IMG/VR virus record: IMGVR_UViG_3300036394_000004
Coordinates: 1 to 42,696 of that record
Strand: one strand, 5' to 3'
From: a virus
Lineage: Duplodnaviria; Caudoviricetes
DNA: 42,696 nucleotides
Part shown: in pieces, positions 2,306 to 37,003 of the stretch
Numbering within the stretch: the first letter of the stretch is position 1
How the letters are laid out: every line of letters starts with the position of its first letter
Made by a program: the position numbers and the translations under genes
Notes under the pieces: generated by a model
Told to the model about the DNA's origin: nothing
Database searches by the model: none
What the model saw: only the letters and a program-made list of their open reading frames with translations

Positions 2306-2321
2306 CTGTGAATAAAAACAG
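2306..2321. promoter_or_regulatory. Second LexA (SOS) box
   Basis: CTGTGAATAAAAACAG = CTGT-N8-ACAG with AT-rich spacer, intergenic. Confidence 0.7.
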
Positions 2322-2338
2322 AAAAACCCGTCCCACGC

Positions 2339-2368
2339 TTGCGTCGGACGGGCGATAACCCGCATAAT
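2339..2368 (+). promoter_or_regulatory. Putative sigma70 promoter
   Basis: TTGCGT-N18-CATAAT, immediately followed by a hairpin at 2375-2394. Confidence 0.55.
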
Positions 2369-2374
2369 GCGAAA

Positions 2375-2527
2375 GTCTGCGCTCCAACGCAGGCGACCAC
2401 AGGATTTGCGAGAAGAAGAGCTAGTGAACTGTTTTGCTGTCTAGCCTTGTAGTTTACGTCGGTTCTCCGGTTTCGCAAGTGGTCTTGACTAAACCTTATG
2501 GCCTTTGTGCCGGAAAGAACCGAAGTA
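2375..2527 (+). ncRNA. Structured 5' leader / candidate cis-regulatory RNA
   Basis: Stems 2375-2381/2388-2394, 2395-2413/2471-2484, 2420-2424/2441-2445; competing stem 2455-2470/2510-2527. Confidence 0.45.
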
Positions 2528-2931
2528 TGCAAGAAGTAAGCAACCTGCCTCCAATGTCCGTCGTCAGCGCGGAAACCATCGGCGGCGCATCCAAGGAATG
2601 GGTGATGTTCCGCGCAAACCGCGCGATCAACACCCGCTTCGTGATGGTCAGCGACACGACCTACACGGGCGACGGGAAAATCTCGAACAAGCTGCGGCAT
2701 GTGTTCTGGCTCCCCGACATCGATTTGAACGCCGGCGACTTTTTCGCAATGTCCACCATGACGGGCAAGCCGTCGTTCTCAGCGCTGCCGGGAGGCGCGC
2801 GGATGTATCACCACTACCTCAACCTGGATGAGCCGATCTGGAACGATCTGGGCGACCGCGTCACCCTGTTCTTCCTGGACGAGTGGGAGACCAGCGCGGT
2901 TCATGGCCGGCGGCTGCGCCTCGCCGCGTAA
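2527..2931 (+). CDS. Small beta-rich protein, lamin-tail-domain-like
   Basis: 134 aa; EWVMF, LNAGD and IWNDLGDRVTL match the LTD-like pattern; followed by terminator. Confidence 0.65.
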   Translation: MQEVSNLPPMSVVSAETIGGASKEWVMFRANRAINTRFVMVSDTTYTGDGKISNKLRHVFWLPDIDLNAGDFFAMSTMTGKPSFSALPGGARMYHHYLNLDEPIWNDLGDRVTLFFLDEWETSAVHGRRLRLAA

Positions 2932-2950
2932 GCGACCACGCTAGTTGACG

Positions 2951-2975
2951 AGGGCGGCTTCGGCCGCCCTTTTTT
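2951..2975 (+). terminator. Rho-independent terminator
   Basis: AGGGCGGC-TTCG-GCCGCCCT followed by T run. Confidence 0.9.
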
Positions 2976-3015
2976 ATGTCAAGACAGCGGCCTGCTCAAA
3001 GAACAACGCTACAGA

Positions 3016-33568: not shown

Positions 33569-34230
33569 CTTGGATGCTCACCAGCACCGGCATCGAATAC
33601 CACCTATCCGGCCCATCCGCTCTGGGCGCGAATGGCCGCTCGGTGACCATTGATGACATCGCGCACCACCTGGCGATCATCAACCGCTTCACCGGCGCGA
33701 CCTCGCGCCCGTATAGCGTCGCAGAGCACAGCCTTCTGTGCGCCGACATTGCCGCGCGCATCGGCGTCTCGCCCATCGTGCAAATGGCCGCGCTCATGCA
33801 TGACGCGCACGAGGCTTACGTCTCCGATCTGAGCAGCCCGGCAAAGACTGCCATCGACGGGTACGGCATGGCCCAGAGCGGCATCCCCGCTTGGAGTCTC
33901 TTCGAGGCGGAGCACGCAAAAGCATTGCGCGCTAAGTTCGGCCTGCTCACCGTGTTCTCCAACCATCGCGCATTTATCCGCGAGGTGGACCTTGAGGCCC
34001 TTGCCACCGAGCGACGCGACCTGACAGCCTTCAACGCCGCATCGCACAGCCCGTGGGCCGTCCTGCGCGATGACACCGAGTCACCCATCCCCGCGGCACC
34101 TTGGGTGGACCTGAACTCGCCTGAACGGGAATCGAAGACCTGGCGCGACTGGCGCGGCGAGTTCCGCGTGCGCTTCCAATCCCTGCGCGCCGCTGTCATG
34201 GCAGCCAATGCGAAGGCGTCCGCATGCTGA
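33565..34230 (+). CDS. HD-domain phosphohydrolase (YfdR-like)
   Basis: DIAHHLAIINRFTG, YSVAEHS, LMHDAHEAYVSD, ATERRDL. Confidence 0.9.
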   Translation: MTWMLTSTGIEYHLSGPSALGANGRSVTIDDIAHHLAIINRFTGATSRPYSVAEHSLLCADIAARIGVSPIVQMAALMHDAHEAYVSDLSSPAKTAIDGYGMAQSGIPAWSLFEAEHAKALRAKFGLLTVFSNHRAFIREVDLEALATERRDLTAFNAASHSPWAVLRDDTESPIPAAPWVDLNSPERESKTWRDWRGEFRVRFQSLRAAVMAANAKASAC

Positions 34231-36029
34231 CGCCTCAGTTCATCCTCAACCTCTCGGCGAAGCTGGTCATCGTGCTGTTCGCTGGCTCGGGCGGCAGTTG
34301 CACAGGCATCGAGCAGGCCATCGGCCGGCACGTCGACATTGCCGTCAACCACAACGAGAACGCCGTTTCGTGCCACCGGATCAACCATCCGCAGACGCGG
34401 CACTACCGCAAGGACGTGCGCGAGCTGTGCCCGCGTGAGCTGACCGGCGGCCAGTCCACCGGCTACTTCCATGCGAGCCCGGACTGCACGCACTTCAGCC
34501 AAGCGCTCGGCGGACAACCTCGCGACACCGAAATCCGCTCGCTGTCGTGGATCGTGGTCCGCTGGGCCGGCCAGGCGCTGCCCGATGTCATCACCCTTGA
34601 GAACGTCGAGCAGATTCGCAAATGGGGCCCGTTGATCGCGAAGCGCGACAAGGCCACCGGCCGGGTCATCAAGCTCGACGGTACGGTGGCCGGACCGGGC
34701 GAGTACGTGCCACGCCGCTTGCAACACCTTGTGCCGGACCCGAAGCGCATCGGCAAGACCTGGGAGCGCTTCCTCGCCCTGCTGCGCACGAAGGGCTATG
34801 TCATTGAGCACCGCCTGCTGCGCGCCGCCGACTACGGCGTGCCCACCACACGCCTGCGCCTGTTCATGGTCGCGCGTCGCGATGGCCTGCCGATCCAATG
34901 GCCGGAAGCCACACACGCGCAGAAGCCAGCGAAGGGCCTGAAGAAGTGGCGCAGCGCAGCCGAATGCATCGACTTCTCGCTGCCCACGCAAAGCATCTTC
35001 GACCGGAAGAAGCCGCTCGTTGACGCGACGTGCCGACGCATCGCCCACGGCCTGAAGCGGTACGTGCTGGACAACGCAGACCCCTTCATAGTTCCGGTGA
35101 CGCACTCGGGCAGCGTGCGGGTGCACGACATCCGAGAGCCTCTGCGCACAGTGACCACCGCCCAGCGCGGCGAGTTCATGCTCGCGACGCCCGTCATGAT
35201 TCAGGCCGGCCACGGCGAGGGCAAGGCCGGCGCCAGGCGCTGGAGCTACGGCGCCAAGGACATCCGCGATCCCGTAGGCACCATCACTGCCAGCGGTGGC
35301 GGCCAAGCCATGGCCATCGGCACGCTGGTGCAGACGGGTTACGGCGAACGCGCCGGCCAGGCGCCGCGCGCCCTCGACATCACGAAGCCGCTTGGCACCG
35401 TCGTGGCAGGCGCAGCGAAGCACGCGCTCGTGACGGCGTTCGTTGAACAGGCGAACGGCGGGCACAACACCACGCCAGCGCGCAGCGCGAACGATCCGCT
35501 TTCGACTGTGACCACCGCAGGCAGTCAGCAGCGGCTCGTGACTGCCCACCTCGCGCACCTGCGAGGCAACTGCGACGCGCGCCCGATGGATGAACCGCTG
35601 CGCACGGTCAGCGCCGGCGGCCAGCATCACGGCCTTGTCGAGTACCACCTCGCGCCCGAGGCGGAAGCCGGCGCGCTGCGCTGCGCCGCTTTCCTGATCC
35701 GCTACTACGGCGAGGGCGGCCAATGGGGCGATGTGCGCGACCCAATGCACACCATCACCACGAAGGACCGCCTTGCGCTGGTTACGGTGTGGCTACAGGG
35801 CGAGCCTTGGGTGATCGTGGACATCTGCCTACGCATGCTGGTGCCGCGCGAGCTGGCGAACGCCACAGGCTTCCCGCGCCAGTACGTCATCGACCGTGGA
35901 CATGACGGCCGCATGTTCACGAAGACCCAGCAAGTGGCAATGATCGGCAACGCGGTGCCACCCGGGCTGCAGCGCGCGGTGACGGCCGCGAACTACCGCG
36001 AAATGTGGCAAGAGAAAGCAGCAGCATGA
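34224..36029 (+). CDS. DNA cytosine-C5 methyltransferase (orphan)
   Basis: LFAGSGG, SPDCTHFS, ENV, YGVPTTRLR, IGNAVPP motifs. Confidence 0.93.
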   Translation: MLTPQFILNLSAKLVIVLFAGSGGSCTGIEQAIGRHVDIAVNHNENAVSCHRINHPQTRHYRKDVRELCPRELTGGQSTGYFHASPDCTHFSQALGGQPRDTEIRSLSWIVVRWAGQALPDVITLENVEQIRKWGPLIAKRDKATGRVIKLDGTVAGPGEYVPRRLQHLVPDPKRIGKTWERFLALLRTKGYVIEHRLLRAADYGVPTTRLRLFMVARRDGLPIQWPEATHAQKPAKGLKKWRSAAECIDFSLPTQSIFDRKKPLVDATCRRIAHGLKRYVLDNADPFIVPVTHSGSVRVHDIREPLRTVTTAQRGEFMLATPVMIQAGHGEGKAGARRWSYGAKDIRDPVGTITASGGGQAMAIGTLVQTGYGERAGQAPRALDITKPLGTVVAGAAKHALVTAFVEQANGGHNTTPARSANDPLSTVTTAGSQQRLVTAHLAHLRGNCDARPMDEPLRTVSAGGQHHGLVEYHLAPEAEAGALRCAAFLIRYYGEGGQWGDVRDPMHTITTKDRLALVTVWLQGEPWVIVDICLRMLVPRELANATGFPRQYVIDRGHDGRMFTKTQQVAMIGNAVPPGLQRAVTAANYREMWQEKAAA

Positions 36030-37003
36030 ACTGCGTGCCACAGCAAGCCGCCAACCCTATCCACCTGGTCTCGGTGTCAGGCGGCAAGGACAGCACCGCA
36101 ACCCTGCTTCTCGCGCTCGAGCTGCACGGCCACGAAAACGTGCGCGCCGTCTTCGCAGACACAGGCAACGAGCACAGAGCTACATACGACTACGTGGACT
36201 ACCTCGAGCACGCGCTCGACATTCCTATCGCACGACTTCGGCGCGACTTCACCGATATGTGGTGGCCGCGTCGCGACTATGTTCGCGACAAATGGCCTGA
36301 GAAAGGCGTGCCGCCGGAAACCGTTGCGAGAGCACTCGCGGTGTTCGAACGCGGACCAACGGGAAACCCATTTCTCGACCTCTGCATTATCAAAGCTCGC
36401 TTTCCGAGCCGCATGGCGCAGTTCTGCACCCAGTTCCTGAAGACTCAGCCTCTTACCGAACACGCGCTCGACATGATCGAGTCGACGGGGCGCTCGGTTT
36501 GGTCTTGGCAGGGCATTCGCATCGAGGAAAGCGAAAGCCGGCGCAAGCGATTTCGCGGAACCGGGTCATGCGTCGCCCACTTCGATGTTCTCGGCGGCGG
36601 CCTCTTCAACCATCGGCCAATCCTGCGCTGGACTGCTGCTGACGTGTTCGAGGCGCATCGGATCAAGGGCATCCGGCCCAATCCGCTGTACCTGCAGGGC
36701 CGCACCCGCGTCGGCTGCCTATGCGTCAACTCCGGCAAGGAAGAAGTCCGGCAATGGGACCTTCGCGACCGCGACCACATCGAGCGCCTCGATGAATGGG
36801 AGCAGATCGTCAGCGAGGTTTCCAAGCGCCGCAACGCGACATTTTTCCCCTCGCCCGGCGACAACGACACCGCACGCGAGCGAGGCGGCATCTGGCAGGT
36901 CGTGCAGTGGTCGAAGACTACGCGCGGCGGCAAGCAATTCAACCTTCTCGCCCAGTTGGACGAGTCCACATCCTGCAGTTCGGCCTACGGCCTTTGTGAA
37001 TGA
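36026..37003 (+). CDS. PAPS reductase-family protein
   Basis: SGGKDS PP-loop, ADTGNEH, GIRIEES..R, NPLY.QG..RVGC, C-terminal CSSAYGLCE. Confidence 0.9.
   Translation: MNCVPQQAANPIHLVSVSGGKDSTATLLLALELHGHENVRAVFADTGNEHRATYDYVDYLEHALDIPIARLRRDFTDMWWPRRDYVRDKWPEKGVPPETVARALAVFERGPTGNPFLDLCIIKARFPSRMAQFCTQFLKTQPLTEHALDMIESTGRSVWSWQGIRIEESESRRKRFRGTGSCVAHFDVLGGGLFNHRPILRWTAADVFEAHRIKGIRPNPLYLQGRTRVGCLCVNSGKEEVRQWDLRDRDHIERLDEWEQIVSEVSKRRNATFFPSPGDNDTARERGGIWQVVQWSKTTRGGKQFNLLAQLDESTSCSSAYGLCE

Follow-up and report, generated by a model that had tools for sequence, protein, structure and literature searches.

A predicted two-state leader, a putative facing antisense promoter and a LexA-type box ahead of a lamin-tail-like gene in a lambda-like prophage

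INTRODUCTION

How can one and the same leader both expose and hide the translation start of a gene, and what would decide between the two states? This question is raised by a structured leader of about 150 nt, located ahead of a gene for a 134-aa protein in a window of 42,696 nt (42.7 kb), by which we mean the whole stretch of DNA analysed here. A first-pass annotation had proposed a module of promoter, RNA switch, effector and terminator, all parts of which are predicted at the locus. It had also taken the effector to be kept silent until triggered, and had pointed to the long inhibitory leaders of the LexA-controlled type I toxins tisB and dinQ. Two corrections are called for: in the folding models the open fold forms first, the likely trigger being a predicted cis-antisense RNA by which translation would be shut down, and the effector is a soluble, lamin-tail-like protein rather than a TisB/DinQ-type membrane peptide. 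In the account that we favor with moderate confidence, which draws on sequence comparison and structure modeling, the leader would be an antisense-gated two-state switch on a prophage cassette.

THE PROPHAGE AND ITS HOMOLOGOUS LOCUS

The window as a whole is a lambda-like prophage with genes for lysis, tail, head, replication, repressor and integrase. The host H-NS gene is found at 1-345, beside a tRNA-His 3′ fragment (about 617-667) that is the likely attachment site; the same H-NS/tRNA-His order occurs in two genomes (G577 and G663). Among the matches listed, genomes having H-NS beside tRNA-His lead to a family in the same order as an Oxalobacteraceae genome, and thus the host is assigned to the Burkholderiales; we assume that it resembles Variovorax. 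The leader and the open reading frame at 2527-2931 lie just beyond the last lysis gene and on the strand opposite to it, the late (lysis) genes being transcribed on the minus strand toward the leader locus. In the early region, a DNA methyltransferase gene is followed by a PAPS-reductase-like gene (34224-37003).

Profile scans from a 14-sequence alignment of the protein encoded at 2527-2931, hereafter the cargo, led to loci in viral (7), genome (26) and metagenome (39) sequences, one of which (L152) is the window's own sequence. Apart from this, only the locus L153, with 58% protein identity, has a homologous leader, which is absent from all other loci of cargo relatives. Homology of the upstream neighbor open reading frames of the window and L153 was considered and rejected, as they do not align. 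A 200-aa gene of the window at 1623-2225, with lower GC (56%), a hydrophobic N-terminus and no family match, is missing at this place in L153 and is probably a separate moron.

TWO PREDICTED, MUTUALLY EXCLUSIVE FOLDS OF THE LEADER

The following elements of the leader were predicted.

2375..2394, plus strand: 5′ hairpin of the leader (2375-2381 with 2388-2394, 7 bp)
2395-2400 with 2479-2484 (outer, 6 bp) and 2406-2413 with 2471-2478 (inner, 8 bp), plus strand: stem A
2455-2470 with 2510-2527, plus strand: stem B (15 bp), inside the "off" hairpin
2395..2484, plus strand: long "on" hairpin of 90 nt with stem A at its base, leaving the ribosome-binding site free
2446..2533, plus strand: long "off" hairpin, in which the 3′ arm of stem A is paired with the block 2491-2512 and the ribosome-binding site and start codon are hidden
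2491..2512, plus strand: conserved block 3, alternative partner of the stem A 3′ arm, containing AUG 2498

The 5′ hairpin and stems A and B had all been drawn by the first-pass annotation, and folding reproduces each of them; stem B indeed reaches the A of the ATG (2527), which pairs with U2455. Folding of the stems alone gives −14.1 kcal/mol for A and −17.4 kcal/mol for B. The two stems cross without a base in common, and they had been regarded as either alternatives or a pseudoknot. In the A fold, 2449-2466 additionally pairs with 2417-2432, while the B fold brings together 2475-2488 and 2496-2509 and has the remainder of the start codon covered by 2446-2451. As A and B draw on the same bases for these conserved extensions, the full folds are mutually exclusive. 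It is thus the alternatives, as two long exclusive hairpins, that stand, and not the pseudoknot.

When the window leader is folded step by step, lengths ending at 2484-2524 have the A fold as their minimum, and from 2534 onward the B fold takes its place. The minimum-energy fold of the full leader is "off" in the window; in L153 it is "off" only once the 5′ part is blocked, and both leaders form the start-hiding hairpin after blocking of the 5′ 70 bases. The "on" hairpin forms in both homologues despite sequence turnover of its middle part, its energy being matched by 5 of 150 shuffles for the window and by 1 of 150 for L153. The fold signal of the single sequence is modest (z = −2.08; 9 of 200 shuffles fold equally well), and it is the conservation in the L153 homologue that lifts it above chance.

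AUG 2498 in block 3 opens a stretch coding for M-A-F/Y-V-P behind a weak Shine–Dalgarno (SD) sequence, with a counterpart at 558 in L153. This AUG is conserved; in L153 it shares the reading frame of the cargo, and in the window it starts a 13-codon open reading frame (2498-2539) overlapping the cargo start. It is a possible coupling element.

The suggestion that the element may be undescribed agrees with the Rfam searches. Rfam 15 gave no match at the gathering threshold over the whole window and none for the L153 leader; the best sub-threshold match over the element was anti-hemB (E 0.15; 18 vs 49.5 bits).

CONSERVATION OF THE LEADER

Four-fold codon sites, 20/44 of which are identical between the window and L153, served as the neutral yardstick. 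Far higher identity is found in the LexA box with its tail (21/24), an inverted repeat at 2327-2352 (22/26), the block 2443-2457, which is invariant (15/15), the 3′ arm of stem A (9/12) and block 3 (20/22), with spacers at 3/10, 11/29 and 7/15. Pairing is maintained as well. All seven pairs of the 5′ hairpin are kept in L153 (one compensatory, one one-sided), as are five of the six outer pairs of stem A, among them one compensatory change and one G-U/A-U exchange, the sixth requiring a one-base bulge; a terminal "compensatory" pair, 2395/2484, depends on gap placement and was left out of the count. The inner part of stem A keeps 6/8 pairs. Stem B as originally drawn is only half conserved (7/14 pairs in register, with six broken and one in a gap), and the inner extension of B, in which the stem A 3′ arm pairs with 2500-2508, keeps 8/9.

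Two partial copies of the locus were found in one sequencing run (X7, records 4 and 5), between which promoters, arms and terminator are kept. Record 4 (151 nt, low depth) has 10 differences, six of which are listed: its −10 agrees with the CATAAT of the window, the TG extension is lost, the closing pair of the 5′ hairpin is opened, and two G-U pairs of the "on" hairpin become A-U, their partner bases lying outside the covered part. Record 5 contains the gene, the stem A 3′ arm, block 3, the antisense −35 and the terminator, and its four bases preceding the ATG are as in the window. Runs X2 and X5 hold near-identical copies, whose sole leader variant is at 2385 in the loop of the 5′ hairpin. 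The G-U/A-U exchanges favor folding on the mRNA (plus) strand. Taken from these sequence comparisons, the leader is a real RNA element under selection. The first-pass annotation had looked to covariation; compensatory changes are seen in the 5′ hairpin and stem A, but two full-length leaders do not allow a real covariation statistic.

Searches for further leaders were samples and do not prove absence elsewhere. Pattern scans of viral contigs returned matches that were non-homologous by nhmmer or by eye, and one further scan was empty. By blastn the leader had no match in phages and 9 short matches in plasmids (E 3-10), and no further leader was present at 46 lysis-region loci of related prophages. 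The 148 genomes of the host-like genus gave two short matches (19-22 nt, chance level) in a DNA search and none (0/148) with a covariance model, and a pattern search of family genomes found 0/401 with a leader. A covariance model over 89 sequence sources recovered the two training sequences and one match at E 0.19 only. A search of 301 genomes, whose listed matches are mostly tRNA-His, says little on the leader.

PREDICTED FACING PROMOTERS, A LEXA-TYPE BOX AND A PREDICTED ANTISENSE RNA

The surroundings of the leader contain the following predicted signals.

2306..2321, either strand: LexA-type SOS box of the form CTGT-N8-ACAG, which precedes the sense −35 by 18 nt
2339..2368, plus strand: predicted sigma70-type sense promoter (TTGCGT, 18 nt, CATAAT), with transcription starting at about 2375
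2451..2478, minus strand: predicted antisense promoter (−35 TTGCGA at 2478-2473, 16 nt, −10 TAAACT at 2456-2451)
2313..2352, minus strand: predicted intrinsic terminator (inverted repeat 2327-2352, then a U-rich tail), over the sense −35
2313..2445, minus strand: predicted cis-antisense RNA of about 130 nt, inferred from the facing promoter and the terminator
2950..2978, plus strand: sense intrinsic terminator, called by the scan, with the same hairpin 3′ of the gene in L153 and in record 5 of run X7

The LexA box, the minus-strand promoter (2478-2451) and the minus-strand terminator (2352-2313) are additions to the first-pass annotation, which had made its switch depend on a transcription start upstream of about 2470; the predicted one lies near 2375. 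The sense promoter has 8/12 consensus positions, below the 9/12 bar of the strict scan, which called neither promoter (scores 7-8/12) nor the minus-strand terminator. A looser rule (TTG-led, at least 8/12) finds 5 plus-strand and 6 minus-strand sites in the 42.7-kb window, and the facing pair accounts for two of these 11. In L153, the only sites of at least 7/12 are one on each strand, again the facing pair. Promoter-like sites on both strands arose in 0.95% of 2000 shuffles. The antisense −10 lies within the invariant block 2443-2457 and its −35 in the 3′ arm of stem A; in L153 the block is identical at 15/15 positions and the spacer at 7/15, but the spacer length is constant. Both antisense hexamers, the −35 and the −10, take part in helices of the mRNA folds too, so that there is a second explanation for their conservation.

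The inverted repeat 2327-2352 keeps 10/10 pairs in L153, one of them compensatory, and forms a hairpin in both. Its pairing in L153 is slightly better on the plus strand (G-U vs A-C), which was counted against a minus-strand terminator. The facing promoter and the terminator together lead to the prediction of the cis-antisense RNA over the 5′ arm of stem A. It would be complementary to the leader over its first ~70 nt, with a 5′ end (~2445) opposite the apical loop that the "on" hairpin has in both homologues and about 80 nt short of the region that contains the start codon as well as the ribosome-binding site. The antisense RNA itself has a stable predicted fold. A U-turn motif in the apical loops, presumably common by chance, was not used as evidence, and none was found in the literature searched.

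A link to LexA had been suspected by analogy, and the box at 2306-2321, conserved in L153, supports it. It matches the consensus in the accessible part of PMC6595937, from which the definition was taken, and boxes of the same form are present in the lexA promoters of all three host-like genomes. Strict boxes number 3 in the 42.7-kb window against 0.47 expected. The box overlaps an A-rich tract and the U-tail of the minus-strand terminator. Related prophages have a strict LexA box at 17 of 46 lysis-region loci, directly ahead of short leaders; as the box of the window lies upstream of the −35, unlike theirs, its effect is uncertain. A second box at 777-792 precedes two unnamed genes (open reading frames 769-1227 and 1254-1538) at the prophage end, and L153 likewise has a second box, at 1393, ahead of an unnamed gene. 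By sequence, it seems to be common for these prophages to have SOS-controlled genes beyond their lysis cassette.

IN SILICO TEST OF THE SWITCH

What happens to the start region when the predicted antisense RNA occupies its target? Blocking the antisense-covered stretch, with the boundary set at the predicted antisense start and not tuned, makes the start region costlier to open: the energy required goes up from 5.6 to 18.4 kcal/mol for the window and, for L153, from 2.0 to 10.0 kcal/mol. A switch of this size (12.8 and 8.0 kcal/mol, respectively) is reached by 0/150 dinucleotide shuffles of the window and 1/150 of L153, and by none of 81 natural controls (0/55 upstream regions of distant relatives and 0/26 other genes of the window). 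In the window, an opening energy of 17-21 kcal/mol results for blocks ending anywhere from about 2424 to 2454. When folded together with the antisense RNA, both homologues yield the "off" hairpin.

Sliding 20-nt blocks have their strongest effect in the window at 2390-2420, corresponding to the 5′ arm, and the profile is flat in L153. Truncating the 5′ end from 2405 to 2455 in silico moves the opening energy of the window from 10 to 14-21 kcal/mol, with little change in L153. The blocked opening energy of L153 taken alone is matched by 11/150 shuffles; this and the flat profile of L153 were counted against the model. So was the outcome that without antisense "off" wins at equilibrium in the window (opening 5.6-7.3 kcal/mol), and hence "on" must be kinetic there. 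An RNA thermometer was considered and rejected: from 20 to 42 C the switch size stays at 11.3-13.4 kcal/mol in the window and 6.8-9.4 kcal/mol in L153, barely moving the balance.

PROPOSED MECHANISM AND ALTERNATIVE EXPLANATIONS

An outline of the process that we propose is as follows: the nascent mRNA would first fold into the "on" hairpin, with stem A at its base and the start free. The antisense RNA of ~130 nt (2445 to ~2313) would enter at the apical loop and unzip the 5′ arm. With the first ~70 nt occupied, the released 3′ half would refold as the "off" hairpin, which takes in the AUG and the ribosome-binding site, and the antisense RNA would thereby lock the "off" fold without contact to the ribosome-binding site. 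RNase III may cut the sense/antisense duplex. The sense promoter might in addition be dampened by LexA, a weaker part of the proposal; if so, the ratio would be tipped by DNA damage, or once the antisense RNA is lost, and the protein would be made.

In our ranking this antisense-gated leader is the most likely explanation, and a leader that switches by itself comes next, as a possible reading of distinctly lower probability. In the latter, "on" would be a short-lived co-transcriptional fold that decays to "off", or would be held by a protein, by a ribosome at AUG 2498 or by processing, and the minus-strand hairpin would merely stop read-through from the late operon. The appearance of "on" before "off" in the window fits this idea, as do the pairing of all invariant blocks in one or both folds, the conservation of AUG 2498 and the course of the late minus-strand genes, which run toward a locus whose sense terminator has no U-tail on the minus strand; according to the accessible part of PMC13000454, timP is switched by structure alone. 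What a self-contained switch leaves unexplained is why minus-strand promoter-like hexamers should be present at a constant 16-nt spacing and why one strand of a helix should be invariant while its partner changes. Nor does the near-indifference to temperature speak for it, and AUG 2498, besides its weak SD, differs in frame between the homologues. The idea that the antisense region overlies a conserved leader peptide was rejected, since no conserved open reading frame lies there.

The remaining readings are considerably less probable. That the minus-strand small RNA is itself the functional product, acting in trans or by transcriptional interference, with the two-state fold as a by-product of overlapping promoters, is unlikely; it would account for the promoter and terminator elements being the best conserved and for the stable fold of the antisense RNA, but the G-U/A-U exchanges work only on the plus strand, block 3 is conserved and pairs with the stem A 3′ arm although it lies outside the antisense gene, and both homologues have an extreme switch statistic. 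We consider it very improbable that stems A and B coexist as an active or ligand-sensing pseudoknot. They do cross without sharing bases, and a leader pseudoknot activates timP in what is accessible of PMC13000454, yet stem B is kept at only half of its pairs in L153 and the conserved extensions of A and B compete for the same bases. An ordinary long 5′ UTR with chance folds is just as improbable: the modest single-sequence z and the lack of the leader in distant relatives of the protein would suit it, but block conservation far above that of neutral sites, the compensatory changes and the control sets argue against it.

THE CARGO PROTEIN AND ITS RELATIVES

The gene downstream of the leader is as follows.

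2527..2931, plus strand: cargo gene, encoding a stand-alone lamin-tail-domain-like protein of 134 aa without a transmembrane stretch

An alternative start at 2554 was ruled out, because the N-terminal L-P-P-M stretch is conserved in L153 and in another relative (P0003). The AlphaFold model is all-beta (pLDDT 90.7), the top 11 PDB matches are lamin Ig folds (E 0.003-0.013, TM about 0.5), and the Atlas neighbors are lamin-tail clusters. PF00932 is found in many relatives; the cargo itself has no direct Pfam, PHROG or PADLOC match. The highest 19-residue hydropathy window is 0.62. These scores, modest but consistent, predict a soluble lamin Ig-like beta-sandwich, with conserved SNKLRH and WND motifs of its own. 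Among 5.8 billion proteins there are two close relatives, and 288 distant clusters at 50% identity; a single-protein scan of viral contigs and a tblastn search of phages found nothing.

What might such a protein do? Neighbors were surveyed by calling 177 open reading frames in 27 loci of distant relatives, of which 119 from 26 loci were scanned. Clear defense genes lie within 4 kb at 12 of the 26 loci, a count that has no background control and leaves out four weak or unspecific loci. They include CBASS, TIR, AbiD, restriction-modification, RosmerTA and PDC systems. PADLOC 2.0 matched no system for the cargo or for any of four relatives. In L165 (374-3570) and L169, a lamin-tail-like gene directly follows a CBASS SAVED effector with a gap of about 20 nt, and in L142 (3995-6885) one abuts a CBASS operon tail to tail.

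At no fewer than 13 of 58 loci, a lamin-tail-like gene is coupled, with stop and start overlapping or abutting, to the gene for an unnamed membrane protein of ~143 aa with a coiled coil and two membrane helices (e.g., L129:3573-3995, L132:3567-3998 and L138:3540-3968). Those partners that were scanned had no Pfam or PADLOC match, and the partner is missing at the window locus. The pair is a candidate two-gene defense system. The defense neighbors and the two-helix partner of the relatives make a conflict role of the cargo plausible, and by guilt by association from sequence a part in phage–phage or phage–host conflict seems most likely. No description of the lamin-tail fold in phage defense was found in the freely accessible literature searched, nor one of a prophage module that combines LexA and antisense control in this way.

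COMPARISON WITH KNOWN SYSTEMS

The closest parallel in mode of action is dinQ/AgrB. As described in the accessible part of PMC5066626, dinQ is under LexA control and has a long 5′ UTR with mutually exclusive helices, and AgrB closes the SD sequence by binding upstream of it, freeing a strand for the SD hairpin. The locus resembles it in the LexA box and in exclusive leader folds that gate the SD sequence, here in silico in both homologues, and it may do so in an antisense RNA, which is predicted to bind upstream of the ribosome-binding site. The differences are that AgrB is a separate gene, whereas the predicted antisense RNA of the window is fully cis-encoded with its promoter inside the leader; that the +1 dinQ transcript is inert until 5′ processing, whereas the start in the window becomes less accessible on truncation up to about 2455; and that DinQ is a 27-aa membrane peptide. 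Rfam shows no sequence match of dinQ/AgrB to the leader.

In gene layout, symE/SymR (PMC1891008 and PMC4147584, in their accessible parts) is similar, with a LexA-controlled soluble protein of more than 100 aa and a cis-antisense promoter embedded in the sense unit. SymR, however, covers the ribosome-binding site and start codon, unlike the predicted RNA, which ends ~80 nt before them and would exert its effect through refolding, and SymE is a MazE-like ribonuclease. As far as PMC4147584 is accessible, hok/Sok and ldr/Rdl have a long structured leader whose 5′ part is covered by a cis-antisense RNA, far from the toxin start, as is predicted for the window. They act through a leader open reading frame that lies under the antisense RNA and, in hok/Sok, is coupled to the toxin, whereas the only conserved upstream AUG of the window, at 2498, is outside the antisense region and shifts in frame; moreover, they have no SOS box and their toxins are membrane peptides. 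In timP/TimR and tisB/IstR-1, long-range alternative leader pairings likewise decide SD access (PMC13000454 and PMC4147584, accessible parts), but the antitoxins are encoded separately, a pseudoknot or standby site is required and the toxins are small membrane proteins. PF00932 proteins have the fold predicted for the cargo, which differs from them in being stand-alone and cytoplasmic-looking. By these analogies and the folding models, the locus would act like dinQ/AgrB and be laid out like symE/SymR or hok/Sok, and by its cargo and the position of its antisense RNA it would belong to none of them.

IMPLICATIONS

A bolder and rather doubtful proposal is that the locus is a new prophage defense module, in which the leader is kept off by an antisense RNA of short life until the supply of this RNA is cut, and LexA lifted, by DNA damage or an invading phage, so that an anti-phage protein of the lamin-tail fold is made. 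If the antisense-gated switch is real, the logic of LexA control, antisense RNA and refolding known from membrane-peptide toxins such as DinQ would extend to a folded soluble prophage protein, within a compact switch of fewer than 300 bases. Such tight control would mark the uncharacterized stand-alone lamin-tail-like family, with its 288 clusters, as a candidate conflict effector.
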